A stretch of 64,000 nt of DNA from an uncultured Collinsella sp. (GTDB lineage Bacteria; Actinomycetota; Coriobacteriia; Coriobacteriales; Coriobacteriaceae): the NCBI GenBank assembly GCA_937995345.1, contig CALKKS010000006.1, positions 22,003 through 86,002 of the forward strand. The letters run 5' to 3'. This document shows, piece by piece, positions 38,025-62,488 of this stretch. The notes beneath the pieces are model-generated. The model was not told where the DNA came from. It did no database searches and worked only from the letters and a program-made list of their open reading frames with translations. Position 1 is the stretch's first letter. Each line of letters opens with the position of its first letter. The translations under genes were made by a program, and so were the position numbers.

Positions 38025-38160
38025 GGGCCGCGTGCCCGCCCGCAATATATTTGATTGATCGCGAGTTCCGCACGCAAAGAAGGCCACTTAATGTGGCCTT
38101 CGTCTTGCGCAGGACTGCCCGAGCAGGCAATCAAATATATTGCGGGCGGGCACGCGGCCC
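38025..38160 (+). repeat. nested hairpin element, family A, copy 1
   Basis: Perfect 32-bp outer arms (38025-38056 and 38129-38160). They enclose a 72-nt conserved core with the inner hairpin gaaggccac-TTAAT-gtggccttc. Confidence 0.9.
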
Positions 38161-38168
38161 AACTTGCG

Positions 38169-39374
38169 TTACGACAGCGCAATACCGCCGAGCCAGCCCC
38201 AGCGCACGCCAGAGCCAGTGCCGTAGAACCGAATAAACGCATCAAGTGACTTAGACGTAATGGCGCCCTCGTTGCTCATAACGATGCCGCCACCAACATA
38301 GATGCCCACGTGTCCGTACAGCAGGCCCGGCGTACCGGTACCACTGTGCGACGAGTCGGCCACGATCATGCCCACCTGCAGCGCCGAACGATCGGAGCTG
38401 TAGCACCAGGCGTTAAACATGTCGCACGCGTTGCCGCCAAAGTAGCCCACGCCGGCGTTGCGGAACACATTGGTAACCCAAGCGGCGCACCAGTTCAGGC
38501 CAGGCGAAGGCGTGGAGTAGCATGCGTTGACGACGGCCTGCTGCTTGCCCGAGCCGGCATTCTGTTGCGGAGTTCCGGGCGCATACGATCCGCCACCCGA
38601 GCTTGAACCACCCGAGTAGGAATTGTTCTTGTTTGCGGCAGCCGCGGCAGCGGCAGCCTTCCTGGCAGCCTCCTCTGCCTGGGCGGCAGCGAGAATCTCG
38701 GAATCACGCTGTGCCATGAGCTCCTTGACATCATCAGATAGGCCATTCAGCACGGTCTGAACCTCTTGCTGCTTGGCCTGCATGTCCTGCATCTGGGCCG
38801 TCTGCTGGTCCTTGAGCTTCTCCAGGTCGGCCTTCTGCGACTCGAGCTCGGACTTTTGCGTGTCGAGCTCCTTTTGGATGGTCTGAATGTCCTCGATGGC
38901 GTCGCGGTCGCTCTTGTTGATCTTCTCGACGTAATGCGCGTTGGCGACGAGCTCCTCAAACGAGCCCGAAGCCAGTAGCAGCGACAGGATATTGGTACCG
39001 CCCGACTTGTAGCTTGCCGCCACGCGATCGGAAAGGTCGTTACGCTTCTTCTTGAGCTCCGACTTCTTGGTGTCGATCTGAGCCTGCGTCTCGTCAATCT
39101 GGCCCTGAACGCCCTCGATATCGCTGAGGGTCTGGGCATTCTTGTTGGCGAGCGTCGCGTACTCATTGGCGATGCTGTCGAGCTGAGCCTGGACCTCGTC
39201 GAGCTGGGCCTGGGCGGCATTCAGTTTGTCGGTGGTTTCTTGGCTGGCCTCAGCCGCATGGGCACGGGCGGGCAGGCCAAAAAGAATAGCCGCGGAAGCG
39301 GCGCCGAAAAGAGCCTTAAGGGCAGTGCGGCGCGAAAGCTCCTGCGTAAAGATGGAATCGTTGTTCGGTGACAT
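38169..39374 (-). CDS. secreted coiled-coil cell-wall hydrolase (PcsB/CwlO-like) with a C-terminal Cys-peptidase-like domain
   Basis: N-terminal signal (RRTALKALFGAASAA...AHA), about 200 aa of heptad-like coiled coil, a Gly/Ser linker, then NWCAAWV...GHVGIYVG, which resembles NlpC/P60 or CHAP. Confidence 0.65.
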   Translation of the reverse strand: MSPNNDSIFTQELSRRTALKALFGAASAAILFGLPARAHAAEASQETTDKLNAAQAQLDEVQAQLDSIANEYATLANKNAQTLSDIEGVQGQIDETQAQIDTKKSELKKKRNDLSDRVAASYKSGGTNILSLLLASGSFEELVANAHYVEKINKSDRDAIEDIQTIQKELDTQKSELESQKADLEKLKDQQTAQMQDMQAKQQEVQTVLNGLSDDVKELMAQRDSEILAAAQAEEAARKAAAAAAAANKNNSYSGGSSSGGGSYAPGTPQQNAGSGKQQAVVNACYSTPSPGLNWCAAWVTNVFRNAGVGYFGGNACDMFNAWCYSSDRSALQVGMIVADSSHSGTGTPGLLYGHVGIYVGGGIVMSNEGAITSKSLDAFIRFYGTGSGVRWGWLGGIALS

Positions 39375-39642
39375 ATGTACTCCGTTACATGCTTATTTAT
39401 ATGTCGCTCAACTCAAACATATTAACGCACATCGCGCTTGTCCCAACTATTTCCACGAACGGCTGGAAAAGCATGGTCAGCGGCTCGCGAACACGTCCCA
39501 CACCAGAGGTAAGGATCATGCAAATAACACCCTATGAGTACGTTAACATCAATCCTCTGGTTTTCCTGCCCCGCGTGTTTTGGGCACCCCCAGCTGCGCT
39601 ATACTCCCCTCAAGAAGTGTTCCTGATTCGATAGGAGACTAC

Positions 39643-40704
39643 ATGTCCAAAGCACTCGACCCCAAAGACACCTGCGTCCTCGTTACCGGCGGCGCCGGCT
39701 TTATCGGCTCGCACACCGTCGTTCAGCTGCTCGAGGGCGGCTACCAGGTCGTCGTCGTCGATGACCTCTCCAACTCCAGCGCCGTTGCCATCGACCGCGT
39801 CAAGACCATCGTGGGCGACGAGGCCGCTAAGAACCTCACCTTCTACGAGGCCAACGTGCTCGACCGCGATGCGATGAACAAGATCTTCGATACCCACCAG
39901 ATCGACCGCGTCATCCACTTCGCCGGCTTTAAGGCCGTCGGCGAGTCGGTGAGCAAGCCCGTCGAGTACTATCACAACAACATCGAGAACACCCTGGTGC
40001 TCATCGATATCATGCGCAGCCACGGCTGCAAGTCCATCATCTTCTCGAGCTCCTCGACCGTCTACGGCGATCCGGACAATCCGCCTGTCACCGAAGAGGA
40101 CCCCAAGAAGCCCGCGACCAACCCCTATGGTTGGACCAAGTGGATGATTGAGCAGATCCTCATGGACGTCCATGCCGCCGACCCCGAGTGGGACGTCGTG
40201 CTGCTCCGTTACTTCAATCCCATCGGCGCCCATCCGTCGGGCCTGATTGGCGAGGACCCCAAGGGTATCCCCAACAACCTGGTGCCTTACGTCGCCCAGG
40301 TCGCCGTCGGTAAGCTCGAGGCTGTTCAGGTCTTTGGCAACGATTACCCCACCCCCGACGGCACCGGCGTGCGCGACTACATCCACGTGTGCGACCTGGC
40401 ATCTGGTCACGTGGCCGCCCTCAACTGGATGAACGGCAAGACCGGCGTCGAGATCTTTAACCTGGGCACCGGCACCGGCACCTCGGTACTCGAGGTCGTC
40501 GCTGCTTTCTCCAAGGCCTGCGGCAAGGAGCTGCCCTATGTGATCCGCGAGCGCCGCGCCGGCGACATCGCCGCCAACTGGTGCGATGCCTCCAAGGCCG
40601 AGCGCATGATGGGCTGGAAGGCCCAGTACGATATCGCGGACATGTGCCGCGACAGCTGGAATTGGCAGAGCCACAACCCCAACGGCTTCGCCGACGCCGA
40701 GTAG
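39643..40704 (+). CDS. galE: UDP-glucose 4-epimerase
   Basis: Contains VTGGAGFIGSH...SSS.TVYG...Y..TK. The ATG at 39643 follows AGGAG. Confidence 0.92.
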   Translation: MSKALDPKDTCVLVTGGAGFIGSHTVVQLLEGGYQVVVVDDLSNSSAVAIDRVKTIVGDEAAKNLTFYEANVLDRDAMNKIFDTHQIDRVIHFAGFKAVGESVSKPVEYYHNNIENTLVLIDIMRSHGCKSIIFSSSSTVYGDPDNPPVTEEDPKKPATNPYGWTKWMIEQILMDVHAADPEWDVVLLRYFNPIGAHPSGLIGEDPKGIPNNLVPYVAQVAVGKLEAVQVFGNDYPTPDGTGVRDYIHVCDLASGHVAALNWMNGKTGVEIFNLGTGTGTSVLEVVAAFSKACGKELPYVIRERRAGDIAANWCDASKAERMMGWKAQYDIADMCRDSWNWQSHNPNGFADAE

Positions 40705-40726
40705 CAAAAACCTACATACCGTTCTT

Positions 40727-40760
40727 GCCCCGATCTCACGATGTGAGACCGGGGCTTTTT
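40727..40760 (+). terminator. rho-independent terminator of galE
   Basis: The gccccgatctcac/gtgagaccggggc stem is followed by TTTTT. Confidence 0.8.
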
Positions 40761-40922
40761 CATGACGCGTAACCATTCACCGAAATACTTCCAACTTTTT
40801 TATCTTGCCTGTACATGTTTAAACAACATGTTTTACAATAGGCGTATCGAATCAGAACATCGGAGGCGGACTGCATACCCATCGGCAGGCCGACCCCACA
40901 ACAAGAAGGTTGGAGCGCATTC

Positions 40923-42428
40923 ATGGAGCGTGCAAGCGGTGTCCTCATGCCCGTCTCATCTCTGCCCGGCCCTTATGGAATCGGCGGCTTTGGTTGGAAT
41001 GCCTACGACTTCGTCGATTTTCTCGCCTCGTGTAAACAACACTACTGGCAGATTCTGCCCCTTACGACGACCAGCTATGGCGACTCGCCCTACCAGTCGT
41101 TCTCGGCCCGTGCGGGAAATCCCAACTTCATCGACTTTGCCGAGCTTATCGAGACAGGATATCTGGAGCAGTGTGACATCGATGGCGTGTACTTGGGCTC
41201 CGATCCCAGCAATGTCGACTACGGCGCCATCTTTGGCGGCCGCCGTCAGATTCTCGACCGCGCCGCCGAGCGCTTTGCTGCCGACAAACCAGCCGATTTT
41301 AACGACTTTGTCCAGGCCAACGAGGACTGGCTCGTCCCCTACTGCGAGTTCATGACCGTCAAGGAGGAGTGCGGGCTCAAGGCCTTTTGGGAGTGGCCCA
41401 CGGAGCTGCGCCGCCGCGGCGAGGCTTCCGCCAAGGTCTGTGCCGCCCATCCGGCGCGCATGCTCTACCACCAGATGACGCAGTATTTCTTTGACCGCCA
41501 GTGGAGCCGCCTCAAGGCCTATGCCAACGAGCGCGACATCCTGATCATCGGCGACCTGCCCATCTACGTCTCGCGCGACTCCGTCGAGATGTGGGCCACG
41601 CCCGAGCTCTTTAAGATCGACGCCGCCGGCAACCCCGTCAGCGTCGCCGGCACGCCGCCCGACCAGTTCTCGGCTACCGGCCAGTACTGGGGCAACCCCA
41701 TCTACGACTGGGACGCCATGGAGGCCGACGGCTTCTCCTGGTGGGAGGGCCGCATTCGCGCCGCTCTCGACATGTACGACGTCATCCGCCTGGACCACTT
41801 CCGCGGTTTCGAGGCCTATTGGGAGGTGCCATTCTCCTCGCCCGATTCGTCCTACGGTTCGTGGACGCAGGGTCCTGGCCTCAAGCTCTTCAAGACGCTC
41901 GAGGAAAAGCTCGGCACGCTACCCATCATCGCCGAGGACCTGGGCTTCCTCACCCCCGGCGTCATCGACATGCGCGATAACTCGGGCTTCCCCGGCATGA
42001 AGATCCTGCAGTTTGCCTTTGAGGGCACCAACTCGTACTACCTGCCGCATAACTACATCGCCAACACCGTCGCCTATGTGGGCACGCACGACAACGAGAC
42101 GGCGCGCGGTTGGTTTGAGGGAACGGCGACCCCGCGCCAGCGCGAGCAGGCGGCCCTGTACACCCATCAGCAGGCCGGCGAGCCCATGGCCGATGCACTC
42201 AACCGCACCATCGCCGCCAGCGTGAGCGATACCTGCATCTACACCATGCAGGACCTGCTCAACCTGGGCAACGAGGCGCGTATCAATACCCCCGCCACCC
42301 TGGGCGGCAACTGGACGTGGCGCATGCTCGATGGCGCCATCACCCGCGAGCTCGAGCACAAGCTCACCGACTGGACCGAGACCTACTTCCGCATCCCGTC
42401 CGAAGCCGAAGTCGAGCTTCCCCAATAG
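40923..42428 (+). CDS. malQ: 4-alpha-glucanotransferase (amylomaltase)
   Basis: Contains GVLMPVSSLPGPYGIGGFG...SPYQS.S..AGN...DHFRGF; canonical GH77. Confidence 0.93.
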   Translation: MERASGVLMPVSSLPGPYGIGGFGWNAYDFVDFLASCKQHYWQILPLTTTSYGDSPYQSFSARAGNPNFIDFAELIETGYLEQCDIDGVYLGSDPSNVDYGAIFGGRRQILDRAAERFAADKPADFNDFVQANEDWLVPYCEFMTVKEECGLKAFWEWPTELRRRGEASAKVCAAHPARMLYHQMTQYFFDRQWSRLKAYANERDILIIGDLPIYVSRDSVEMWATPELFKIDAAGNPVSVAGTPPDQFSATGQYWGNPIYDWDAMEADGFSWWEGRIRAALDMYDVIRLDHFRGFEAYWEVPFSSPDSSYGSWTQGPGLKLFKTLEEKLGTLPIIAEDLGFLTPGVIDMRDNSGFPGMKILQFAFEGTNSYYLPHNYIANTVAYVGTHDNETARGWFEGTATPRQREQAALYTHQQAGEPMADALNRTIAASVSDTCIYTMQDLLNLGNEARINTPATLGGNWTWRMLDGAITRELEHKLTDWTETYFRIPSEAEVELPQ

Positions 42429-42557
42429 GAGCTATCGCGCCCGACCCCACCCCATCGTGCGGACGCGTTCGCCTTTCCCGCGCGAGGCCACCCCAATCCC
42501 CTCGCGCGGGCTTCTTTTGTATTTCTGACATGTAGTCAACCCACCACAGGAGGAAAC

Positions 42558-44825
<2,268 letters not shown>

Positions 44826-44852
44826 CCCATTCCCCTTACCCATCCTCTTGAA

Positions 44853-44884
44853 AGCGGAGTCGTGGCAACACGGCTCCGCTTTTT
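44853..44884 (+). terminator. rho-independent terminator of glgP
   Basis: The agcggag/ctccgct stem is followed by TTTT. Confidence 0.7.
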
Positions 44885-44923
44885 GTGCCCGCGTGTTGCC
44901 CGTGGCCCACCTCGAGCAAATCG

Positions 44924-45220
44924 TCTCAATCTGTAACACCTACTCGGCCAAAACGGTCCTACCTGTTACAGATCAAGACAAACCGGTCCTTTCCCTAGGA
45001 TTTATCTCAATCTGTAACACCTAACGTCCGAAATCCGCCCTTACTGTTACAGATCGAGACAAATAGATAAGCTGGCTAAAAACAATCTCAATCTGTAACA
45101 GGTAGCTGCCAAAAACAGTCCTTCGTGTTACAGATCGAGATGAAAGGACAGGCAACTCGACGCCGTCTCGATCTGTAACATCTAGGCCCAATTTGGCCCT
45201 CTATCTGTTACAGATCAAGA
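44924..45220. repeat. phased array of eight alternating-orientation 15-bp repeats (four hairpin units of about 81 bp)
   Basis: Copies in one orientation (TCTYRATCTGTAACA) start at 44924, 45005, 45086 and 45166. Copies in the other orientation start at 44964, 45045, 45126 and 45206. The 10-bp core ATCTGTAACA is perfect in all eight. Loops are 25 nt and linkers 25-26 nt. Confidence 0.9.
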
Positions 45221-45251
45221 CAAACTAACAGATGGACAACCCCAACACAAA

Positions 45252-45290
45252 GAAAGGCCCCCCTCTCGCCCAGTGGACGGGAGGGGAGCC
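45252..45290 (-). terminator. terminator of the sugar ABC operon
   Basis: On the minus strand the stem ccctcccg...cgagaggg is followed by a cctttctttgtg T-rich run. Confidence 0.55.
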
Positions 45291-45360
45291 TCATATGTGA
45301 CCGCGGTAAAAGGATGGCAATACCGCAGTCGCCCAAAGGAAGGGCCTGGTTGCACCGGGC

Positions 45361-46560
45361 CTAGATAAGGTTCTTGCCAGAGACCTTATCGAAGAGATGG
45401 GTCGCGTTCTTCTCGAACTTGAACCAGATGGGGTCGCCCGCCTTGAGCGCGCCCTTGGCCTCGAGGTCGACGACGGGGATGATCAGGACGAATTGGCCGT
45501 CGGGAGCGGTCACGTGGACGTGCTCGGTGGAGCCCATGAGCTCGGTCACCTCGACGGTGCCCTGGAGCGCGCCCTCCTCGCCCTTGTCGGCAAGCAGGAT
45601 CTGCTCGGGACGAACGCCGGCCGTGATCTCCTTCACGTCGCCGCCGTCCCAGTTGAGGGCAAGTTGAGCGCAGGTCTCGGGGGCGAGCGCCACGTTCATA
45701 TCCTCGGTCTTGACGGTGAAGCCGTCACCCGAGCGCACCAGCTGGGCATCGAAGAAGTTCATCTGCGGCACGCCGATAAAGCCGGCAACGAAGATGTTCG
45801 CGGGATGGTTGAAGACCTCCTGCGGCGTGGCGATCTGCTGGACAACACCGTCCTTCATGACCACGATACGGTCACCGAGGGTCATAGCCTCGGTCTGATC
45901 GTGGGTAACGTAGATGAAAGTACCCTTGATCTCGTGGCGCAGCTTAATGAGCTCGGCACGCATCTGGTTACGAAGCTTGGCGTCCAGGTTGGACAGCGGC
46001 TCGTCCATCAGGAAGACCTTGGGGTCACGCACGATGGCGCGGCCGATGGCGACACGCTGACGCTGGCCGCCCGAAAGCGCCTTGGGCTTACGGTCGAGGT
46101 ACTCGGTGATACCCAAGATCTCGGCGGCGGAGCGAACCTTGCGGTCGATCTCGTCCTTGGGAACCTTCTTGAGCTCAAGCGTAAACGCCATGTTCTCGTA
46201 CACCGTCATATTGGGGTACAGAGCATAGCTCTGGAAAACCATGGCGATGTCGCGGTCCTTGGGTGCCACGTCGTTGACGCGCTTGCCGTCGATGAGCACG
46301 TCGCCCGAGGTGATGTCCTCTAGGCCGGCGACCATGCGCATCGTCGTGGACTTACCGCAGCCAGACGGGCCAACGAGAACGATGAACTCCTGGTCATGCA
46401 CGGTGAGGTTAAAGTCCTCCACCGCGAGCACGCCGTCCTCGGTAACCTTGAGGTTGTGCTTCTTCTCCTCGGTCTTCTTCTTTTTGCCAAAGAAGCCCTT
46501 CTTTTTGGACTCGTTGTTGGGATACACCTTCTGAACATGTTTGAGAACGATCTCGGCCAT
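45361..46560 (-). CDS. sugar ABC transporter ATP-binding protein (MsmK/UgpC/MalK type) with a Lys-rich N-terminal insertion
   Basis: Contains GPSGCGKST, LSGGQRQR and a C-terminal TOBE-like region. There is an unusual KKKGFFGKKKKTEEKKH insert before Walker A. Confidence 0.9.
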   Translation of the reverse strand: MAEIVLKHVQKVYPNNESKKKGFFGKKKKTEEKKHNLKVTEDGVLAVEDFNLTVHDQEFIVLVGPSGCGKSTTMRMVAGLEDITSGDVLIDGKRVNDVAPKDRDIAMVFQSYALYPNMTVYENMAFTLELKKVPKDEIDRKVRSAAEILGITEYLDRKPKALSGGQRQRVAIGRAIVRDPKVFLMDEPLSNLDAKLRNQMRAELIKLRHEIKGTFIYVTHDQTEAMTLGDRIVVMKDGVVQQIATPQEVFNHPANIFVAGFIGVPQMNFFDAQLVRSGDGFTVKTEDMNVALAPETCAQLALNWDGGDVKEITAGVRPEQILLADKGEEGALQGTVEVTELMGSTEHVHVTAPDGQFVLIIPVVDLEAKGALKAGDPIWFKFEKNATHLFDKVSGKNLI

Positions 46561-46628
46561 GTCTTTACCTTTCGATATGCGGCGCCACGCTGAAGGGCGC
46601 CGCAGAAACTTGCAAAATAGTTACGGCA

Positions 46629-48322: not shown

Positions 48323-48342
48323 AGAAGGGTCCTTTCAATATG

Positions 48343-53548: not shown

Positions 53549-54574
53549 ATGCGAGAGCCTGTGTCCAGTCCGTTTACCAGCTTTTTAGCCCAGCACTTCG
53601 ACCAGATTAACGACTATCTGGCCACGTTCTTTGACGGACAGGCGGCCTCTGCCGACATCGAGCGCTACCTGTACGCACCGCTCTCGGCTTTTACGGCCAA
53701 CGCCGGCAAGCGCCACCGCCCGCTTATCTGCATGCTCGCCGCAACCGCAGTGGGCGGTAGCTTTGAGAGCGCCCGCAGCGCCGCGGCGGCCATCGAACAT
53801 TTCCAGTCGGGTGCGCTGATTCACGACGACATCGCCGACAACGGGCAGCTTCGTCGAGGCAAACCCTGCATGCACCTTACCGAGGGCGCGGGGCTTGCCA
53901 TCAACTGCGGCGACCTGGCACTTACCATGGTCACCAAGACGGTTCTCGACGATCCAACGCTCGAGGCAGGCGTAAAGCTGCGCGTGCTCCACGAGCTCAC
54001 CGAGATGATCGTCCGCACCATCGAGGGTCAGGCGCTCGACTTGGGCTGGGTCCGTGACGCACGCTTCGACATCTCGGTCGACGATTATCTGGACATGGCG
54101 ACGCACAAGACCGCGTTTTACAGCGGAGCCACACCGCTTGCCGCCGGAGCCATCATTGGCGGAGGCAGCGAGGAGCAAATTGAGGCGCTACGCGCCTTTG
54201 GCCTGCACACGGGCCTTGCCTTCCAGATTCAAGATGATCTGCTCAACTTGATCGGTACCAAGGAGGCCGCCAACAAGGACTTCCGCACCGATATCACCGA
54301 GGGTAAGCGCACGCTCGTTGCCGTGCACGCCCTGTCTGATGAGCGCTATCACGACGAGATTGAAGCAATCCTCTCCTCGGGCACCGAGGACCCCGCGCAG
54401 CTCGCGCGCGCCGTGGAAATCTTCCAGGAGACCGGCTCTATCGATTACGCCCACGCCTACGCGCTGGACCTGACCGCCAAAGCCAAGGCCGCCATCGAGG
54501 ACGTTTCGCTCGACCCGCATGCACGCGAACTGTTCCTCTCCATGGCAGATTTCTTTGTGGAGCGCCTTAACTAG
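53549..54574 (+). CDS. polyprenyl diphosphate synthase (trans-IPPS, GGPP/heptaprenyl type)
   Basis: Two Asp-rich motifs, LIHDDIADNG and FQIQDDLLN. The start is uncertain, with ATG at 53531 or 53549. Confidence 0.85.
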   Translation: MREPVSSPFTSFLAQHFDQINDYLATFFDGQAASADIERYLYAPLSAFTANAGKRHRPLICMLAATAVGGSFESARSAAAAIEHFQSGALIHDDIADNGQLRRGKPCMHLTEGAGLAINCGDLALTMVTKTVLDDPTLEAGVKLRVLHELTEMIVRTIEGQALDLGWVRDARFDISVDDYLDMATHKTAFYSGATPLAAGAIIGGGSEEQIEALRAFGLHTGLAFQIQDDLLNLIGTKEAANKDFRTDITEGKRTLVAVHALSDERYHDEIEAILSSGTEDPAQLARAVEIFQETGSIDYAHAYALDLTAKAKAAIEDVSLDPHARELFLSMADFFVERLN

Positions 54575-54712
54575 CGGGGGTTATAAAACCTGTCAGCAGC
54601 GTATTTGGGTACAACTTGCTACACTGTTGAGTGCATGTTTATGCATCCCTTTGCGTTGTCTATCCGGCACACGCTCAAATAGTACGAATGGTACGCCGAA
54701 AGGGGTTCGTTC

Positions 54713-55618
54713 ATGGAACCTATTACAACGGGCATGCAGGGAGCAGCCGTCGAGGACGTCCAGTCCCGCCTTCTGCAGCTCGGCTATACAATCGATGGCA
54801 CCGAGGTTGCCGACAAGCGCTTTGGCACCACCACCGAACAGGCTGTTGGCACCTTTAGGCTCGATAGCGGCCTTGCCGCTGGCTGTGCCGTCGATATCCC
54901 CTGCTGGAGCGCCTTGGTAGACGCCTCGTATAAACTGGGCGACCGCACGCTCTATCTGCGCATGCCCAATTTCCATGGCTCCGATGTGCAGGCCTTGCAG
55001 AAGGCGCTCAACGTTTTGGGCTTTGCCTGCGGCGAGGACGACGGCTACTTTGGCCCGCACACCGAGGCGGCCCTTCAGCAGTTCCAAGAAAACGTCGGTC
55101 TGTTTGCCGACGGTATGGCTTTCCAGGATACCTACGCCTACATCAACCGCCTGCACCACGTGTGGGAGGGTAAACCTTCGGTGACCGAGGCTGAATCGCG
55201 CATCGGCTTTGCCCGCGCGGCCAATGTACTCGAGCGTTTCCAGATTGCCGTCATCGGCGAGGACCCCATCGCGCGCAGCGTAGCATCGCGTATGTGGAAC
55301 ATCGCCACGGCGACGACCGACAACAGCGGTATGATGCTTTGCGACTCCGAGGTTCCGACCGACGTTGACCTGGTGCTCGAGATCGCAAGCGACGAGCTGC
55401 CCGCCGACGCCGCTCCGCGCGCCACGATTGCCCTCGCCGAGTGCCACAACCTGGCCCAGCGCATCCGCACCGCCAATGTCGCCGCACAGCAAAAGCCGGC
55501 ACGCATCCGCATTGAGCTCACCGGCATGACGCGCTACAACGGAACCTTCACCGCAAGCGACGCGCAAACACTCGCCGTACGCCTGCTCGATGGCGTTTGC
55601 GATGCCCTCGCAGATTAG
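54713..55618 (+). CDS. protein with two peptidoglycan-binding (PG_binding_1-like) repeats
   Basis: Contains GAAVEDVQSRLLQLGY...FGTTTEQAVGTF and GSDVQALQKALNVLGF...FGPHTEAALQQFQ. The C-terminal half is unassigned. Confidence 0.6.
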   Translation: MEPITTGMQGAAVEDVQSRLLQLGYTIDGTEVADKRFGTTTEQAVGTFRLDSGLAAGCAVDIPCWSALVDASYKLGDRTLYLRMPNFHGSDVQALQKALNVLGFACGEDDGYFGPHTEAALQQFQENVGLFADGMAFQDTYAYINRLHHVWEGKPSVTEAESRIGFARAANVLERFQIAVIGEDPIARSVASRMWNIATATTDNSGMMLCDSEVPTDVDLVLEIASDELPADAAPRATIALAECHNLAQRIRTANVAAQQKPARIRIELTGMTRYNGTFTASDAQTLAVRLLDGVCDALAD

Positions 55619-55655
55619 GTAAACTAGACGAGTTGCTTTTGTGCAACGCACATAC

Positions 55656-55730
55656 TGGGACGTAGTTCAACGGTAGAACTCCGGTTTTTGGTGCCGGCTG
55701 TTGGGGGTTCGAATCCCTCCGTCCCAGCCA
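55656..55730 (+). tRNA. tRNA-Gln (anticodon UUG), CCA encoded
   Basis: Folded by hand. The acceptor TGGGACG pairs with CGTCCCA and the D stem GTTC with GAAC. The anticodon stem is CCGGT/GCCGG with loop TTTTGGT. The T arm is GGGGG-TTCGAAT-CCCTC. Discriminator G is followed by CCA. Confidence 0.9.
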
Positions 55731-55739
55731 TTAAAACTG

Positions 55740-55771
55740 AGCGCCCTGAGCCCATAACGGCCCAGGGCGCT
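55740..55771 (+). terminator. hairpin terminator after tRNA-Gln
   Basis: The agcgccctg/cagggcgct stem is followed by TTCTTG. Confidence 0.6.
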
Positions 55772-55901
55772 TTCTTGTGGGCAAGCGGAGGAATTCGAAC
55801 CCGCAAGGGTGCGGAGCTGAGGAAACGCGAAGCGTTTGCCAGCGCAGCACGCAAGGAGCGAAGCGACGCAGCGGGCCGCGGCCGCCGAAAAGGCGGACGC
55901 A

Positions 55902-55917
55902 GAATCCCTCCGTCCCA
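55902..55917 (+). repeat. 16-nt direct repeat of the tRNA-Gln 3-prime end (att-like)
   Basis: gaatccctccgtccca is identical to tRNA positions 56-71 (55711-55726). Confidence 0.85.
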
Positions 55918-55927
55918 CATCAGCCAA

Positions 55928-56503
55928 AGTAGATTTTTGGGACATGCCTAGAAATCTACCTATCAGCCCAGCTCCGCATGGCAAAGGAATAGCCCCTTTG
56001 TCACATTCGGTATCGTTCTCAAATCGCCATCAGCATTTTTCGAGTTATGCGGTCACGCTGCCGACCCACCACGCAATGCCACCGAAATAGCTTGATCGCT
56101 CTTGTCATAATCTGAGCGTATTCAAGCCTTCTTGAACAGAAGCTTCACAGAGTCAAACGCAGCAAAGGAATCAGCTGTCCCCGAAACGGCATCTTCGGAC
56201 TGCAAAAGGCCCCAGAATACCGCCTAACTCGATTTTTGCAGGTGAGAAGGAAATGCAATCGATTCATACGCCTAAATCGGCATCCCCCATGCGACATTAG
56301 ATTCCAGGAGGTCATTTCCATGCAGAAATGACCTCAATAACGCCATGTCTCGTTCCAATCTGGGCCTCTTTGAGCAAGCAGAGGAATTCGAATCAGCCAG
56401 ACAACACAACTTCTCGTCCTGCACGAGAAGTTTCAGCCATAACTTCTCGTTCTGCACCAGAAGTTGAAGGTAGGTTTTCAGGCATGTCCCAAAAATCTAC
56501 CTC
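55928..56503. repeat. non-coding segment of about 576 bp bounded by imperfect inverted repeats of about 37 bp (family E)
   Basis: 55928-55964 gtagatttttgggacatgcctagaaatctacct matches the reverse complement of 56467-56503 with a few mismatches. The interior holds tandem hairpins aacttctcg...cgagaagtt at 56408-56432 and 56441-56465. Confidence 0.7.
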
Positions 56504-56634
56504 CAAAAGACAGGTGCCCCAAGCCCATTAGGACCAAGAGCGCCTTACATCTAGAACATATCAGCCTAGTTCCGAAAAGCGAGCCGCCATCAACAAAGCG
56601 CCGTGTGGCCCCGACGGGCCGGGCATTAAGTTTG

Positions 56635-56664
56635 TCGCGAGTTCCGCACGCAAAGAAGGCCACT
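56635..56664 (+). repeat. family A element, truncated copy 4 (left half of the core only)
   Basis: tcgcgagttccgcacgcaaagaaggccact is identical to the copy 1 core up to the inner stem, where the match ends. Confidence 0.8.
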
Positions 56665-56831
56665 AACCTCGATGTTTTGGACGTGACAGCGAGAGGGGTC
56701 CTGGTATGGCAAGGTGACGTGAAACAAGGCGGCGCTGACCTTCTGGTCGCGCCGCCGAAGTTGAACGTCAGATTGCCGTGCCAGGGACCCTCGCAGCGTC
56801 GAGAGGGCCGCCGTTCGGTAGAACGGCGGAA

Positions 56832-59024
56832 CTAATTATTAAGCATACGGTCGAAGCTTCCCGAGTCGCCATCCCGGTAGTCGGCGGTCATCAGAATCTC
56901 CTGCGGAATTCGTCCGCCCTCACGCAGCACGTTGCGGAACTGCACACGCGTAACCACGGGCAGATCCTTAATCGTCGCCGCCAGGTTCTGCGGCACGCCC
57001 TGGTTGGCAGCCGCGGGCTCGCACTCGCCGCCGGCCTTCATGCGACGCTTGTGCTCGGCGAGCATGGCGCGATACATACCGGCATGTAGACGGATCTCGA
57101 CCACATTAGCATTGCGAGCCTGCTCGACAATACGCGCGCCCTCTCGGTCGATGTCACCCACGTAGTAGACGTAGTTAAAGCGGTAGCCGATCTCGGCCAG
57201 ATAATCATCCAGCGCATGAGAGACACTCGCCTTGCACCCACCGCCAAAGATCACGCCGCCCACCTTAGTGCCAAAAAGCTTGGCATGTTTGCGGCCACGC
57301 AGGAGCTTGACGATTTCGTCGTAGGCATCCAGGTTCTCGACCATAATGAACGGCTTGTCGGCGCCCAGCGTAAAGAAGCCCGTAAAGTGCACCGGACGGT
57401 TGGGGGCGACCTTGATCGCCTGCATGCTGATGCCCTTTTCGGTCATACGCCTGATCAGGCGCTCGCCATGCTTGCCGTCAAAAGCTTTTTCGTCATTGAA
57501 GATCTGGTAGGCGCGCTGGCGGCGCGAGGCAACCGGAGTATCGGCACCGCGGTTTTGCTCGATCCAAGCCTGGATAATCGCGATTTCCTCGGCAATTTTG
57601 CGATTGGACATCTCGTTGTGCGGGGCGCGCTGTGGTGCTTTCTTGCCGTCCTTGCCCTCGACCTTAACGATTTGGGTCTGCTGCTCCTTGATCTTGGAGA
57701 GCGCCGTAGGCGTGGGGACAACCTTGAGCAGCTGCCTGCCCAGCACGCGGGCCAGGGCAAATGCCGAGACCTCGCCGTGGACGGTCGGCTCAGACCGCTG
57801 GGCAGCATTATCAGCTGCGGCAGGCTCAGCCTGTGCATGGGGCTTACGCTTGGAATCTGCCCGGGTATTGCGTTCCTGCTTGGGCGCAGACGAGCGTTTT
57901 TGCGGACGATCAGACTTAGTCTCCTTCGCCGGCTGACGCTTGACCTGATCCACCGGAGTCTCGGCCTTCTCATCTCTGTTTTGCGTCGCCGCCTTCTCGG
58001 CCGCGGCCTCGGCATTTGAGCTACGACCGCCGCGGTGACGGCGGCGACGGGGCTTGCTTGAGGCGCTCTCCCCCGCCTGCTTATCAGCGGACTGTTGAGC
58101 CTTGGCCTCGGTGTCAGCCGCAGGCTGCGACTCGGAAGGTCGCTGCTCGCGAGTCGCTGGCTCAACGGTTTTCTCGGTTTGTTCGATCTTCTCGGCCTGA
58201 GCGGTCGGAGCTGGCTCGCCCTTCTCCTGGCGCTTTACGGGATACGCGCGTCCCGCAAACCCACGGCCGGGACGACACGAACCCGGAGCCTTCTTGGCAG
58301 ACTCCTCTACATCGTCTGCAACCTCGAAAGGCTCATCAACCTCATGCGCGACATCCTGCTGCGCAGCCTTAAAGTGAGCACCGCGACGACGCTTGGGCTC
58401 TTGGGCCTCCACGGGCTTTTGATCCTTCGCGGGCTTCTGCGACTCGGCAGCAACCTCGGTCTCAACAGCCTCGGTATCAAGTTCATCCTTTTGAGCAACG
58501 GCGCGACGGAAGCGCTCCTGCTGAGCGCGGCGTTGTGCATCGCGCTTGCCGCCCCCGCCAAAGCCGCCGCGAGCCGCCTTGGCGGTAAAAGCGCGAACGA
58601 CGTTCTCATCGAGCAGCTCATCGGTATCGATATGCTCACGCGGGGCAACTTCTTCCGCAGCAGGCACCTCAACGGAATCCTCGACAGGCTGCTCCTGGGC
58701 ATTATGAATCTCGGCATTGATGGTATAGAACGCAGGGCGGCCGTTAATGCCGCTACCCTCGATCTTGGTCACAATCTTTGCCGCGATAAGCTCATCGCGC
58801 ATCGCCTTGGTGTCGCATTCCTTATCGACGGAGCGGAAGATCTGCGCCAGGGCGCTCGACTTAATCTTGAGTGCCTTGCGGCAGAGCAGGTCGTAGGCAA
58901 CCAGCTTGGCCCGCTCGGCAGAAAGCGAAGTCTGGCCGCTCAGACGCTCAGCCAGGGCATCGACATTGTTTTGGTTATCGGAATATACCGTCTTGGCCAC
59001 GGGGCCCCTTTCATATGTACACAT
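56832..59024 (-). CDS. orphan JetD-C/DUF2220-like Toprim-domain protein with an N-terminal globular domain and about 350 aa of charged low-complexity sequence
   Basis: The C-terminal ~250 aa contain FIMVENLDAYD (Toprim Glu), FGGG and YYVGDIDREGARI (DxD), then HAGMYRAMLAEH. This is the motif order of the JetD C-terminal domain. The middle is K/R/E/A/Q-rich. An alternative start is GTG 59000, after AAAGGGG. Confidence 0.5.
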   Translation of the reverse strand: MCTYERGPVAKTVYSDNQNNVDALAERLSGQTSLSAERAKLVAYDLLCRKALKIKSSALAQIFRSVDKECDTKAMRDELIAAKIVTKIEGSGINGRPAFYTINAEIHNAQEQPVEDSVEVPAAEEVAPREHIDTDELLDENVVRAFTAKAARGGFGGGGKRDAQRRAQQERFRRAVAQKDELDTEAVETEVAAESQKPAKDQKPVEAQEPKRRRGAHFKAAQQDVAHEVDEPFEVADDVEESAKKAPGSCRPGRGFAGRAYPVKRQEKGEPAPTAQAEKIEQTEKTVEPATREQRPSESQPAADTEAKAQQSADKQAGESASSKPRRRRHRGGRSSNAEAAAEKAATQNRDEKAETPVDQVKRQPAKETKSDRPQKRSSAPKQERNTRADSKRKPHAQAEPAAADNAAQRSEPTVHGEVSAFALARVLGRQLLKVVPTPTALSKIKEQQTQIVKVEGKDGKKAPQRAPHNEMSNRKIAEEIAIIQAWIEQNRGADTPVASRRQRAYQIFNDEKAFDGKHGERLIRRMTEKGISMQAIKVAPNRPVHFTGFFTLGADKPFIMVENLDAYDEIVKLLRGRKHAKLFGTKVGGVIFGGGCKASVSHALDDYLAEIGYRFNYVYYVGDIDREGARIVEQARNANVVEIRLHAGMYRAMLAEHKRRMKAGGECEPAAANQGVPQNLAATIKDLPVVTRVQFRNVLREGGRIPQEILMTADYRDGDSGSFDRMLNN

Positions 59025-59101
59025 ATACGTCTATATGGTACAACGCGCGCCCTTGTCCACGCAAAACATCTGCGAGAACACCCCGTCATCACCCGTCTTT
59101 A

Positions 59102-59138
59102 CAAAAAAGACCGAGCCCGCGTTCTGCGGACCCGGTCT
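59102..59138 (-). terminator. rho-independent terminator of cstA
   Basis: On the minus strand the stem agaccgggtccgc/gcgggctcggtct is followed by TTTTTT. Confidence 0.8.
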
Positions 59139-59179
59139 TTCCGAGTCATATGGATGGAACGGTTAGCCCATCAAGCTGA

Positions 59180-61069
59180 CTAGGCCTTGGCAGCCTCGGC
59201 GTCGGCAGGAGCCTCGGCGGCAGCGGCGCGACCGTACTCGGCCTTGCCCATCTCGGACCACTCGGGCTCCTCGTCGGGCATGGAACCGGCCTCCTTGCCG
59301 AAGAACTCCTTGAGGCAGTTGACGGCGACGATGAGGCCCAGGACCATCAGCAGGACGGCAAAGACGAGCTGCAGGCCCTTGGTAGCGGCAACGGAGACGG
59401 CGGCCGTGGTGGCGGTAGCCGGGATGGTGCCGAAGAAGCCGTAAGCCTGGACGGCGGTCATGCAGCCCATGGCGCTCTGGACCAGCGAGGTGAAGGTGCA
59501 GCAGAGCAGGAAGGCGACGGGCACGTAGAGCATCCAACCCTTGCGGCCAGTGCACTTGCAGAACACGGCGAGGGTGATCATGGTCATACCGCCGAGCAGC
59601 TGGTTGGAAGCACCAAAGAGCGGCCAGATGTTGGCATAGCCACCAAAGGCGAGGGCGAGGCCGGGAAGCAGGGTAACGACCGTGGCGAACCAGGGGTTGC
59701 CGAGGACCTTCATGTAGCCGGCCTTGGACTCGATGGCCAGGGCATCGTTAGTCTGGGCAAAGAACTCGGAGAACGAGGTGCGAGCGATGCGGGCGACGGC
59801 GTCGAGCGAGGTCAGGGCCAGAGCGGAGACGTTCATGGTCATGAAGACGGTAGCGAGTGTGCCGTCAACACCGAAGGCCTGCATACCGCGGGAGATGCCA
59901 GCGGCGAAGATCTGGAACGGGGTGGAAGCGACACCGGCGTTGAGGGCGCCCGTACCGGCGGTGTTCATGTCGGAGAACATGATGCCGGCGACGATGATGG
60001 CAAGGATGCCGACGAAGGACTCGACGATCATAGCGCCGTAACCGACCTTGACGGCGTCCTGCTCCTTCTCGACCTGCTTGGAGGAGGTACCAGAAGAAAC
60101 GAGGCTGTGGAAACCGGAGAGAGCGCCGCAAGCAACGGAGACAAACAGGACCGGGAACATCATGCCGGAGGCACCAGAGAAGCCGGTGAAGACCGGAGCG
60201 GTCATCGTAGCCTGGCCGTTAGCACCCAGGACAACGATGCCGAGGACAGCGCAGGCGATCATGACGATCATCATGATGGAAGTGAGGTAGTCACGAGGGG
60301 TCTTGAGCATCTGGATGGGCATAGCGCCAGCGAAGACCAGGTAGACCATGACGACGGCGAACCACTGGAACTTGTCCAGGTAGACCGGGAACTGCATACC
60401 GACGGCAAACATGAGAACCATGAGCACCACGCCGGTAACGAACTCGGCGGCACCGGTGAGGTCGAACTTCTTCTGGGCCCAACCAAAGGCCATGGCGACG
60501 AAGGTGAACAGGATGGAGATGGTACCAGCACAGCCGGCGGCATAAGACTTGGTGAAGTCGATGGCACCGGTAGCAGCACCAGAAGCGTCAACGGCCGGGG
60601 TGAACATGAACGTCTTGCAGACCATGTCGGTGAAAGCGGCGATGACGATGATGCAGAACAGCCAGCAGAACAGCAGGAACAGGCGACGGCCGGTCTTGCC
60701 GATGTACTTCTCGATGAGCTGAGCGAGCGACTTGCCGTTGTTCTTCATCGAAGCGTACAGGGCGCCGAAGTCGTGGACGGCACCAAAGAAGATGCCGCCG
60801 ACGAGGACCCAGAGCACGACGGGCAACCAGCCAAAGGCCATGGCGACGATCGTACCCGTGACAGGGCCAGCACCGCAGATCGAGCTGAACTGGTGCGAGA
60901 ACGCGGTGAAGGCGGAGACGGGCGAGAAGCTCTTGCCGTCCTTCATGCGCTTGGCCGGCGTGAGAGCCTCTTTGTCAACGCCCCACTTGTTGGCCAACCA
61001 GCGGCCGTAGCCCAGATAGCCGCAGGCGAGCACCGCCGCAGCCACAACCATGAGCAAAACTCCGTTCAT
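59180..61069 (-). CDS. cstA: carbon starvation protein CstA-family transporter
   Basis: 629-aa polytopic protein beginning MNGVLLMVVAAAVLACGYLGYGRWLANKWGVD, with a CstA-like N-terminus and length. The RBS is GAGGAGGA. Confidence 0.88.
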   Translation of the reverse strand: MNGVLLMVVAAAVLACGYLGYGRWLANKWGVDKEALTPAKRMKDGKSFSPVSAFTAFSHQFSSICGAGPVTGTIVAMAFGWLPVVLWVLVGGIFFGAVHDFGALYASMKNNGKSLAQLIEKYIGKTGRRLFLLFCWLFCIIVIAAFTDMVCKTFMFTPAVDASGAATGAIDFTKSYAAGCAGTISILFTFVAMAFGWAQKKFDLTGAAEFVTGVVLMVLMFAVGMQFPVYLDKFQWFAVVMVYLVFAGAMPIQMLKTPRDYLTSIMMIVMIACAVLGIVVLGANGQATMTAPVFTGFSGASGMMFPVLFVSVACGALSGFHSLVSSGTSSKQVEKEQDAVKVGYGAMIVESFVGILAIIVAGIMFSDMNTAGTGALNAGVASTPFQIFAAGISRGMQAFGVDGTLATVFMTMNVSALALTSLDAVARIARTSFSEFFAQTNDALAIESKAGYMKVLGNPWFATVVTLLPGLALAFGGYANIWPLFGASNQLLGGMTMITLAVFCKCTGRKGWMLYVPVAFLLCCTFTSLVQSAMGCMTAVQAYGFFGTIPATATTAAVSVAATKGLQLVFAVLLMVLGLIVAVNCLKEFFGKEAGSMPDEEPEWSEMGKAEYGRAAAAEAPADAEAAKA

Positions 61070-61104
61070 TACATTTCCTCCTCTAAAAAGAACTACTCAG
61101 ACAT

Positions 61105-61143
61105 AAAAAATGAGGGCCGTCGGTTGCGCTCGACGGCCCTCAT
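61105..61143 (-). promoter_or_regulatory. terminator-like hairpin in the 5-prime region of cstA
   Basis: On the minus strand the stem atgagggccgtcg/cgacggccctcat is followed by TTTTTT. The run ends about 35 nt before the cstA ATG. Confidence 0.5.
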
Positions 61144-61437
61144 CTTCATCAGCCGCCCGTTATCGTACGGGCTAGCTGTATGTGCTAACCCGCATCAGAT
61201 AATTACTACGCTGATAATGTTTAGCTGATGCGTGAACATGTCTAAGAAATCCTCTTCAATCATGATGCGAACGATCCGTGCGGTTCACATCCCCCAGTGG
61301 ATGAAACGCAGTATGAAACTTTAGTTACCTAAAGTCAACGCAAATTTGTAATGAATTTTCAACTTTTTTTGAATTTCTCGGTATAAAACGCCAGTGACCT
61401 CGGACTTTATCCTGCGACAGTTTTTGCATGAGGGATG

Positions 61438-61588
61438 TCCCTGCGCGCTGCGGGAGCCGGGCGGCACATATGAACTTTCCTGCTCTACAGTCCTGCGCAA
61501 GACGGAAAGCACATTAAGTGCTTTCCTTTGCGTGCGGAACTCGCGATAAAGTTCATATGTGCCGCCCGGCTCCCGCAGCGCGCAGGGA
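61438..61588 (-). repeat. nested hairpin element, family A, copy 3 (inverted relative to copies 1 and 2)
   Basis: Perfect 41-bp outer arms (61438-61478 and 61548-61588) around a 69-nt core. The inner hairpin is ggaaagcac-TTAAT-gtgctttcc when read on the minus strand. Confidence 0.9.
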
Positions 61589-61655
61589 CTCCCATCCCAA
61601 ATCTCAACTCTGTTATCATAATTACGATAATATCCTGATAGCTCAGGAGGTAGCT

Positions 61656-61931
61656 GTGAATATTAGGCCAGTCTCAGATCTTAGAAATCACTACCCGGAC
61701 GTTGAACGCGAAGTCGAACAAGAGGGTCCGGTTTTTCTAACTAAAAACGGGCGGGGCTCTATGGTCGTCATGAGCTTTGAGCAGTACAAGTCGCTGAGCA
61801 ATACAATCGAGAGCGCCCTTGATGCCGCTGATCGTCAGGCCGCCAGCATGCATCTTCGCTATACACACGACGATGTCTTTGGCTCTGTCAGAAAAATGCT
61901 CAACGGCAGTCTCGATGAACAGGCCCTATAA
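61656..61931 (+). CDS. type II antitoxin, Phd/YefM-like
   Basis: The GTG at 61656 follows CAGGAGG. The peptide begins VNIRPVSDLRNHYPDVEREVEQEGPVFLTKNGRGSMVVMSFEQY. Confidence 0.75.
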   Translation: MNIRPVSDLRNHYPDVEREVEQEGPVFLTKNGRGSMVVMSFEQYKSLSNTIESALDAADRQAASMHLRYTHDDVFGSVRKMLNGSLDEQAL

Positions 61932-62229
61932 GCTCCGCTATCTTCCCCTATTTTGGGAGGACCTCAGCCAAGCAGCGTCATATATCGCCTTTGATCTCAA
62001 TAACCCCGCTGCAGCAAATAGGCTTGTCGACAATGTTGAAGCAGGCATACTCGAACATCTCAAGAATCCAACCATGTCACCAACATACCCTTCGACAAGA
62101 AGGCGGTTGCACCCGTATTACCGCTTCTACGTTGGCAACTACATGGTTTTTTATGTCGTCATCGACGACGTTATGGAAGTCCGCCGACTGCTATATAAGA
62201 GACGAGATATTGAGTCGATTATCAGGTAG
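61915..62229 (+). CDS. type II toxin, RelE/ParE superfamily
   Basis: 104 aa overlapping the antitoxin by 17 nt. Contains ...YRFYVGNYMVFYVVIDDVMEVRRLLYKRRD. Confidence 0.75.
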   Translation: MNRPYKLRYLPLFWEDLSQAASYIAFDLNNPAAANRLVDNVEAGILEHLKNPTMSPTYPSTRRRLHPYYRFYVGNYMVFYVVIDDVMEVRRLLYKRRDIESIIR

Positions 62230-62331
62230 GTTTCTTTCAGCTAAAGAACGCCGGAAATTCGACGCAGACTGGCTAACCTTGCTGGACGTTGTCGACGCCG
62301 ATCCAGCTCATAAGCCATATCGATACAGAAA

Positions 62332-62488
62332 GGTCCCCGGCGCCGCCCGGGCGCCAACGGCCGCATATGAACTTTATCGCGAGTTCCGCACGAACAGGAG
62401 GCCACTTAATGTGGCCTCCGTCGTGAGCAGGACTGTAGAGCAGGAAAGTTCATATGCGGCCGTTGGCGCACGGGCAGCGCCGGGGACC
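62332..62488 (+). repeat. nested hairpin element, family A, copy 2
   Basis: 44-bp outer arms (62332-62375 and 62445-62488) with 2 mismatches, around a 69-nt core. The inner hairpin is ggaggccac-TTAAT-gtggcctcc. It ends 12 nt from the tsaD stop. Confidence 0.9.

Follow-up and report, generated by a model that had tools for sequence, protein, structure and literature searches.

In a 64,000-nucleotide stretch of DNA from an uncultured Collinsella sp. (contig CALKKS010000006.1, positions 22,003 to 86,002; hereafter the window), several intergenic spacers, such as those next to murB, cstA, and a rimI-tsaD fusion gene, were found to contain long nested hairpins which we refer to as family A. Collinsella is a common and exceptionally diverse genus of the human gut, and the window, judging from its sequence, is DNA of the C. 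aerofaciens group. Our comparison with related genomes suggests that family A is a conserved, interspersed, intergenic palindromic repeat which is essentially restricted to Collinsella and has not been described previously. The copies present in the window are as follows:

Full copy 1, 38025-38160, + strand: arms 38025-38057 and 38128-38160 (33 nt, 100% complementary), core 38058-38127; inner stem-loop 38079-38101 (+ strand), GAAGGCCAC, TTAAT, GTGGCCTTC
Truncated copy, 56602-56664, + strand: left-arm remnant 56602-56634, 5' half of the core 56635-56664
Full copy 2, 61437-61589, core on the - strand: arms 61437-61478 and 61548-61589 (42 nt, perfect; extendable to 49 nt at 94%), core 61479-61547; inner stem (- strand) GGAAAGCAC/GTGCTTTCC, TTAAT loop
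Full copy 3, 62332-62488, + strand: arms 62332-62375 and 62445-62488 (44 nt, 95% complementary, 2 mismatches), core 62376-62444; inner stem (+ strand) GGAGGCCAC/GTGGCCTCC, TTAAT loop

The whole element consists of an asymmetric core of 69–70 nt inside long paired arms and has a total length of 130–160 bp. The core starts with (A/G)TCGCGAGTTCCGCACG, which is followed by a 4-nt spacer, a 9-bp stem, TTAAT, the 9-bp return strand, and a 6–7-nt spacer, and it ends with GCAGGACTG, a 3-nt variable stretch, and GAGCAG(G/C). An initial annotation, made from the letters of the window only, had described three full copies and one truncated copy. When the sites were reread and the arms re-paired, these coordinates and features held, as did the claim that the inner stems of all three full copies are compensated around the TTAAT loop. 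The outer arms had been called unrelated between copies. They are indeed copy-specific with perfect or near-perfect pairing, but not wholly unrelated, as their inner 8–20 nt recur across loci.

Copy 1 is located 77 nt after the murB stop codon and 8 nt after that of a convergent PcsB/CHAP-like gene, copy 3 is 12 nt past the stop codon of the rimI-tsaD fusion gene (- strand), and copy 2 is approximately 370 nt upstream of cstA (- strand). The core 5' ends of copies 2 and 3 face each other, and a Phd/YefM-ParE toxin-antitoxin cassette (61603-62230, + strand, assigned by Pfam matches), which is not part of the repeat, lies between them. The orthologous loci L047, L096, and L214 lack this cassette, and about 115 bp separate the two copies there. 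The truncated copy is broken inside the TTAAT loop of its inner hairpin and the remainder is replaced by 167 nt of unrelated sequence; at the orthologous site in L050, a full element with the arm CGCGTGGCCCCGGCGGGCCGGGCATTAAGTTTG is present.

The family A observation was confirmed as real and far beyond chance. With up to three mismatches allowed, a core 17-mer matched five times in the window versus 0.65 expected matches, and none of 100 shuffles reached five. A covariance model built from 16 core variants, a check that had been proposed with the initial annotation, was run over the whole window with filters off and recovered exactly three full copies at 91–95 bits (95.1 for copy 1, 90.9 for copy 2, and 94.9 for copy 3), the only full hits in the window. 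The opposite strand of these copies scored only 28–33 bits with the same model, and the core is therefore strongly asymmetric. The truncated copy scored 15.8 bits (E = 0.084), and no other match in the window had E < 0.1. RNA folds of the elements gave one long hairpin per element, with energies from −100 to −114 kcal/mol and z-scores between −13 and −16 (−99.6 kcal/mol and z = −13.5 for copy 1), and the DNA fold of the element gave −65 kcal/mol. Single-sequence folds favour three small hairpins which are closed by the long stem.

In line with the initial annotation, which recognised no known RNA family, an Rfam 15 scan of the whole window at the gathering threshold matched no known family at the elements and returned tRNA-Gln only. 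In E-value mode, the copies matched only mir-7563 (49.9 bits, threshold 80) and mir-2545 (47.4 bits, threshold 94), both of which are sub-threshold cases of generic long-hairpin similarity. Several other identities were tried and rejected. ARAGORN found only the tRNA-Gln (55656-55730) and no tRNA or tmRNA at the elements, and a resemblance to domain V of group II introns, judged by eye, had no Rfam match. A canonical intrinsic terminator was not accepted for a GC-rich hairpin with no U-tract directly after it. A conserved small open reading frame (ORF) through the element was rejected as well, the sequence past the loop ATG being variable arm.

Two neighbouring features were also observed. An element of about 570 bp (55929-56500) with 33-bp inverted repeats (GTAGATTTTTGGGACATGCCTAGAAATCTACCT) as its boundaries adjoins the truncated copy and, relative to the orthologous locus L050, is inserted directly downstream of tRNA-Gln. 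On the - strand, a 34-codon ORF (61325-61429) starts 8 nt from the edge of copy 2, whose arm end supplies a GGGA-like ribosome-binding motif; the start region of this ORF (catgcaaaaact) is conserved upstream of cstA in orthologous loci.

Distribution and genomic context

We examined the distribution of the core by an exact-pattern scan of one genome per prokaryotic species, in which at least 119 contigs were matched. Among the matches listed, nearly all belonged to Collinsella or unnamed Coriobacteriaceae. The exceptions among them were one metagenome-assembled genome of the Eggerthellaceae, with a different inner loop, and two contigs of a Methanobrevibacter-labelled bin, which are taken to be bin contamination. 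In 1.35 Mb of Collinsella DNA, 186 full copies were found at approximately 26 distinct loci, and most loci are occupied across the whole aerofaciens complex. The density is about 12 copies per Mb, that is, tens per genome. In the C. aerofaciens record NZ_OY725717.1 (0.9 Mb, L215), 11 places have the element, none of which is annotated.

This record is filed as a plasmid yet full of core genes, and carriage by plasmids was rejected, as it is the sole "plasmid" match. Carriage by phages was also rejected: no phage record matched the core. Two viral contigs did match (L212 and L213). The former holds the copy of the tRNA-Gln locus and is probably the host flank of a prophage call, and the latter ends within the element. 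MurB homologues at 94–98% identity are plentiful in human-gut metagenomes. In more distant Collinsella, whose MurB proteins are 84%, 74%, and 67% identical, the element is absent at the murB site and the neighbourhoods are rearranged. In the literature searched, we found no publication on repeats of Collinsella or Coriobacteriia; the supplement of PMC8040213 lists Collinsella RNA candidates, and the portion of it examined here contains no sequences with which the element could be compared. The claim that these hairpins are not decaying junk is supported by a repeat family which is conserved genus-wide and shows genuine covariation at two levels.

The intergenic location next to gene 3' ends, noted initially for the window, extends to other genomes. 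Almost all loci (24 of 26) adjoin a gene 3' end; 10 are convergent, 14 tandem, and 2 divergent, and copies are enriched between convergent genes. Copies typically lie 3–20 nt past stop codons. Of 47 adjacent stop codons, 17 are no more than 30 nt away from the stem base; the shortest distance is 3 nt, and the element overlaps none of them. The core is co-directional with transcription in 10 of the 14 tandem loci. A consensus promoter scan gave no match at the elements. Inverted family A pairs occur at four loci, one of which (L083) has two unknown genes bracketed by a pair whose core 5' ends point inward.

Core modules, arm pairing, and proposed template switching

Comparison of the copies revealed that the core is a mosaic of modules around an invariant frame, CGCGAGTTCCGCACG ... 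GCAGGACTG ... GAGCAG. The invariance of CGCGAGTTCCGCACG and GCAGGACTG, which were fixed by the search pattern and are paired imperfectly by RNAalifold, is uninformative. The A or G at the 5' end of the core is linked to the G or C at its 3' end. Beside the inner stem there are three alternative modules (CAAA...GTCTTGC, AACA...GTCGTGA, and AGCC...GTGCGA), each of which forms a 5-bp helix in a register that differs between modules. The 9-bp inner stem itself has at least five versions, and the 3-nt variable patch reads TAG, CCC, TCC, or TTT. All these modules are found in numerous combinations, between loci as well as between alleles of one locus, which points to exchange between copies.

In the inner stem (P2), four of the nine pairs have changed on both sides and none on one side only, so that no wobble change was seen; 99.3% of cells are paired, compared with at most 53% in slid controls, and 0 of 500 shuffles reached the observed score. 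One core of L077 has, in place of its asymmetric 3' half, an exact complement of its own 5' half, and this palindromisation is a multi-nucleotide change made in one step. The asymmetry of the core must be actively maintained against such homogenisation, through selection or because intact copies repeatedly serve as templates.

Arm length ranges from 18 to 49 bp, and 78 of 108 complete copies have perfect arms. The recurrent inner parts are of the types CATATGAACTTT, TTAAGTTT, and CATAAGGTT, often after GGGGCGGG, and one inner sequence, GGGGCGGGGCATAAGGT, is common to three loci; the outer parts are locus-specific. At orthologous loci the arms are homologous, with compensated changes. The murB/pcsB locus (the site of copy 1) was analysed in 80 gut-metagenome contigs, with MurB identities of 94–98%, and in species representatives. 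Arm allele classes at this locus are equal in length and differ at 7–10 of 31 positions, every difference being compensated. Across 13 haplotypes, 14 of the 31 pairs have changed on both sides; 95% of cells are paired (slid controls, at most 45%), and the observed score was not reached by any of 500 shuffles. These compensations include transversions (A-T to T-A and C-G to G-C), and at other loci the arms show compensated length changes (indels). The 70 unique arm pairs comprise 2405 positions, 45 of which are mismatched. On the core strand, G·T-type and A·C-type mismatches are equal in number (17 vs 17), and neither strand shows a preference for wobble. Among close relatives, identity at murB/pcsB is 73% in the arms, 82% in the adjacent unconstrained spacer, and 88% in the core; the arms change faster than the neighbouring spacer, yet remain Watson-Crick paired. 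The 5' arms of family A, and of a sister family B described below, are G+T-rich on both strands, a bias not found in unrelated hairpins.

It has been reported that template switching in quasi-palindromes homogenises and expands arms and makes compensatory changes in one event (PMC8794818, PMC8604942, PMC13100816). The arm pairing pattern of family A looks like the signature of such DNA-level switching within the palindrome. A lack of G·U excess, compensation through transversions and indels, and the one-step palindromisation in L077 all make the pairing signal DNA-like. Since template switching can account for it, the arm covariation is real but is not evidence for selection at the RNA level. 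The initial annotation had read covariation at two levels as pointing to a structured RNA. The covariation stands, in the inner stem as well as in the arms; alone it does not indicate a structured RNA, and the absence of a G·U preference and of any wobble change in P2, the transversions and length changes, and the L077 core speak against that step.

A structured RNA in its own right, either a core-derived small RNA or a cis-regulatory structure in the 3' untranslated region (UTR) with selected RNA pairing, seems distinctly unlikely to us. Such an RNA would fit the covariation of P2 and arms and the co-direction of core and transcription at most tandem loci; the conserved asymmetric core could adopt a junction of three hairpins with the long stem closing it, and A/T-rich TANNNT-like hexamers can be seen by eye in the inner arms, 8–12 nt from the core. 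However, Rfam offers only generic, sub-threshold microRNA-hairpin matches, neither strand has wobble intermediates or a G·U bias, and the invariant core segments provide no covariation to test. In addition, the consensus scan places no promoter at the elements, stems of 30–49 perfect base pairs are unusual for functional bacterial RNAs, and the compensation can be explained by template switching without RNA selection (PMC8794818).

Repeat unit, loss, and mobility

Of 68 unique arm types, 54 have no direct repeat abutting the element, 8 have one of 1 nt, and 6 have one of 2 nt; no longer abutting repeat and no target-site duplication were detected. Terminal sequences are not conserved between copies, the outer arms being locus-specific. 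No clean empty site emerged from flank-to-flank BLAST at all loci or from the 80 metagenome contigs that cover the murB locus. The element-less murB alleles are all deletion derivatives with differing junctions (L195, L205, L175/L204, and the L149 type), which retain 13, 18, or 21 nt of one arm or half of the core; one deletion type is fused via a 7-nt repeat, GGCCTTC, shared by the murB terminator and the inner stem. The comparison of strains for presence or absence that had been suggested at the outset, here covering 80 close-relative contigs, thus yielded deletion derivatives only and no clean insertion polymorphism. A family B copy and an unrelated 66-bp hairpin showed the same deletion pattern, which is ordinary palindrome instability. 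The 66-bp hairpin (36854-36919, arms TTGGTGTAAAGTAACCTGACCCC) is located in the divergent spacer between a lacI-like gene and murB. It is kept in a few relatives and missing in most of the 80 contigs, where a 9-nt gap keeps the end of the right arm.

With regard to the repeat unit, L077 has two copies 2.2 kb apart which are alike in their arms and in approximately 30 nt of flanking sequence (204 nt, 89% identity), and this single case suggests that the duplicating unit is probably the whole stem-loop. In the 1.35 Mb, no parent element was found, either as separated half-elements around an ORF or as matching ends; the only solo half-cores are a coding-sequence look-alike in the lacI-like gene and three truncated copies. 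No transposase is annotated in 150 kb of NZ_OY725717.1, and no RAYT gene in the approximately 164 kb of this record that were read; no whole-genome protein search was made.

Selfish, non-autonomous mobile DNA is the main rival of the reading favoured below, and we consider it rather unlikely. According to this explanation, a hairpin of single-stranded DNA is the substrate of an enzyme acting in trans, such as a Y1/HUH RAYT-like transposase, an IS200/IS605 TnpA, or a tyrosine recombinase, which reads the asymmetric core, and any effect on the host is incidental. Many dispersed copies with a near-identical core and differing flanks would be expected from such spread, and the strand asymmetry of the core (95 vs 33 bits) fits strand-specific recognition of a folded hairpin. 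The duplication of a whole stem-loop to a nearby site in L077, a pairing conservation which behaves as DNA-level, and the inverted pairs at four loci, with accessory genes between the copies at two of them in some genomes, are further points in its favour. On the other hand, the abutting repeats of 0–2 nt leave no target-site duplications, the ends are unconserved, and the "empty" alleles of the 80 close relatives are deletion derivatives and not a clean presence/absence polymorphism. Recent activity is not evident from loci mostly occupied across the aerofaciens complex, GTAG is confined to one core variant, and the searches for a parent element and for an annotated transposase were negative as described above.

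Another possibility, to which we give a slender chance, is that the mobile unit is a smaller core of about 90–100 nt, bearing short A/T-rich inner repeats, which enters the loops of GC-rich hairpins already in place (for example, terminators), so that the outer arms are derived from the target and possibly accumulate layer by layer. Conservation is graded accordingly, from the core through the inner 8–20 nt of the arms to the locus-specific outer arms, and alleles of one locus share their outermost bases (GGKCC at murB/pcsB and GGTCCCCGG after tsaD) and differ inside in sequence and length. P2 also resembles ordinary local terminators, e.g., GAAGGCCCC-GAAA-GGGGCCTTC. At the element-less murB/pcsB site of the Collinsella contig L128, a small GGGCC-gag-GGCCC hairpin is found at the same distance from the pcsB stop codon, which keeps the idea of insertion into an existing hairpin alive without proving it; the closest filled relative, L125, has different outermost bases. 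Moreover, a search of 0.93 Mb found a family-specific centre in every long G-rich hairpin and no empty loop; the L077 duplication carries arms and core together; the arms show the family-typical G+T-rich 5' bias that ordinary hairpins lack; and nested insertion of one element in another was not seen. The motif GGNCC is present at the stem bases of 25% of arm types compared with 6% in shuffles, a figure inflated by orthologues and not relied on here.

Numerous contigs stop within the element or link, at the core, arms that belong to different loci, and in L114 the core lies in inverse orientation with respect to its flanks. Arms of up to 49 nt and a core of 70 nt are as long as typical k-mers of short-read assembly, so that such chimeric junctions and the L114 inversion are possible misassemblies, inseparable from real events, and were not used as evidence. 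The arm junctions would otherwise agree with a site that acts at the DNA level: a protein of chromosome organisation or recombination would bind it as a cruciform or in double-stranded form, and the site would mark the boundaries of accessory-cassette exchange. In our view this is highly improbable. It would be consistent with strand-symmetric pairing and with inward-facing inverted pairs at four loci, between which the toxin-antitoxin genes of the window or the L083 genes are found in some genomes only. However, the arm junctions may be artefacts of short reads across the 70-nt repeat, each flanking gene may simply own a 3' element, no recombinase is nearby, and the bias towards gene 3' ends is left unexplained.

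Possible function, known repeats, and sister families

We tentatively favour, with somewhat less than even confidence, the reading that family A is a REP/TRIT-like stem-loop repeat of 3' ends, in which the whole stem-loop is the unit and the core binds a putative factor. The repeat unit would be the entire 130–160-bp stem-loop, and the only requirement on its arms would be pairing. It would be co-transcribed as a 3'-UTR stem-loop, and either strand folds as an RNA hairpin of about −100 kcal/mol. The stem-loop may then act as a bidirectional transcript-end, insulator, or exonuclease-barrier element, and the asymmetric core may be the docking site of a putative protein which gives function, spread, or both. 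Perfection of the arms could be kept largely by template switching within the palindrome during replication, one arm being copied from the other, in which case much of the "covariation" would be mutational rather than selected. Ectopic recombination would swap core modules between copies.

Several points weigh against this reading. The terminator scan found no site at any copy and no U-tract after the stems, and a separate canonical terminator (37951-37972) stands between murB and copy 1. Copy 2 is located upstream of genes and not after one, and the core shows only a weak preference for one orientation with respect to transcription (10 vs 4 tandem loci). A long perfect stem of double-stranded RNA would be a substrate of RNase III and might destabilise a transcript rather than protect it. 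Among the genes read, no binding protein or mobilising enzyme was identified. Finally, mycobacterial hairpins without U-tracts are reported to terminate poorly (PMC3993855).

Comparison with known systems suggested that family A is best filed among the bacterial interspersed palindromic repeats, as a variant built the other way round. Like REP, BIME, and REPIN sequences, it consists of lineage-restricted, interspersed extragenic palindromes at gene 3' ends or between convergent genes, with frequent inverted pairs and stable hairpins in mRNA or single-stranded DNA. REPs, however, are 20–40 nt long with a conserved sequence and a 5' GTAG and occur in hundreds of copies, whereas the arms of family A differ between loci and its copies number tens per genome (~12 per Mb). 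In REPINs the ends are conserved and the spacer is variable; in family A the asymmetric 70-nt centre is conserved and the arms are free. GTAG itself occurs only in the TAG core variant, the other variants having CCC or TCC. The suggestion of a REP- or PATE-like element or Y1-transposase substrate in the initial annotation finds no support in this anatomy, which lacks a conserved GTAG-type REP, conserved terminal repeats, and target duplications.

The mycobacterial TRIT (PMC3152330) is also actinobacterial, genus-restricted, palindromic and hence bidirectional, and associated with stop codons; its sequence conservation likewise suggests a binding factor, and neither repeat has a canonical U-tract. 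TRIT is a short hairpin with a conserved stem sequence which overlaps the stop codon (around position −8) and has 147 copies (PMC3152330). Family A, by contrast, measures 130–160 nt, has variable perfect arms and an asymmetric core, and starts 3–20 nt after the stop codon. There is no sequence relation to TRIT, and the likeness is one of position and restriction only.

Correia/NEMIS elements of Neisseria, enterobacterial ERIC/IRU, and pneumococcal RUP/BOX resemble family A as intergenic sequences of 100–160 bp which are mosaic inside and form long hairpins if co-transcribed, but they have conserved terminal inverted repeats and usually target-site duplications (TA for Correia), and family A has neither. 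A miniature inverted-repeat transposable element was rejected on the same two grounds, and there is no clean insertion polymorphism. Integron attC sites share a hairpin kept by structure and not by arm sequence, a strand-distinguishing asymmetry, and accessory cassettes nearby, including toxin-antitoxin genes. They differ in their conserved R/L boxes at the stem base, variable centre, and direct arrays next to intI; the stem bases of family A vary, its copies are dispersed among housekeeping genes, adjacent copies are inverted, and no integrase is present, and attC was therefore rejected. PATEs, which are derived from IS200/IS605, have two subterminal imperfect hairpins without terminal inverted repeats and insert 3' of a fixed tetra- or pentanucleotide. 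This identity was rejected, as family A is one nested hairpin whose inverted arms are long and perfect, and no constant oligonucleotide flanks it. Quasipalindrome template-switch mutagenesis would explain the one-step compensation, arm homogenisation and expansion, and spacer inversion seen or suspected here. It is a mutational process and not an element family, and leaves the conserved asymmetric core and the dispersal over many loci unexplained.

A role of the elements at transcript 3' ends, if they have one, would help to explain transcription punctuation in a U-tract-poor actinobacterium. Dozens of one-locus alleles with compensated arms and no wobble intermediates provide a natural dataset on the maintenance of long hairpins. 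They also carry a caveat for RNA-motif discovery, in that DNA-level template switching can mimic RNA covariation. In practical terms, many Collinsella assemblies made from short reads are interrupted at the 70-nt repeat, and some are probably joined wrongly there.

Further nested hairpins are found in the same genomes; their arms are variable and GC-rich, their inner part is A/T-rich, and their asymmetric centre is conserved:

Family B, window 32695-32767 and 32879-32961, an inverted pair 111 bp apart: centre GAGAAGT-GGGCTYCGCGA-ACTTCTC
Families C to F, centres of 36, 48, 74, and 41 nt: conserved centres inside variable GC-rich arms
Sites of families C to F: L215 (NZ_OY725717.1) 30942-31307; L005, L101, L109; L089, L102, L119; L018, L044, L066, L086; L117

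The arms of family B are variable and start with GGGCC, and its orthologues show compensated arm changes; a widespread allele without the first copy still has 16 nt of the left arm of that copy. Like family A, families B and D form inverted pairs, that of family D lying between convergent genes. Several sister-family centres contain GCGAAGC, which is a very stable DNA mini-hairpin. Family A and at least five sister families invert the usual design of palindromic repeats, with a conserved centre and free arms. A bolder reading, which we rate as very unlikely, is that families A–F form a superfamily propagating as whole hairpins by an undescribed structure-directed mechanism, in which the centre would be the sole sequence-specific handle for an enzyme and inverted pairs would delimit slots for accessory genes. 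If true, this would be propagation without terminal repeats or target duplication, with arms free to change.

Other repeats were also observed. The repeat AACCTGCCAAAAAGGGACAGGTTTATTTTGG forms an inverted pair at 11397-11511 and is present in L004, L065, L084, L019, and L077; at the rnj-pnp locus of other genomes, this motif directly abuts family A copies. Short-repeat arrays, GGAAAGTGTGTCCC / GGGATGCAGTTTCCG, adjoin family A copies at one locus (L054 5690-5990 and L060 7690-7790). In the window, four tandem units of about 81 nt were found at 44923-45233, each of which has a variable 25-nt loop enclosed by a 20-nt inverted repeat (TCTCAATCTGTAACA...TGTTACAGATCGAGA). A hairpin of 68 nt, whose arms pair over 23 bp, occurs twice, at 2545-2612 and 6842-6909, 4.3 kb apart and with 99% identity, and the region 19691-29141 contains large internal duplications with spacings of 2782 and approximately 7974–8011 bp and identities of 75–100%.

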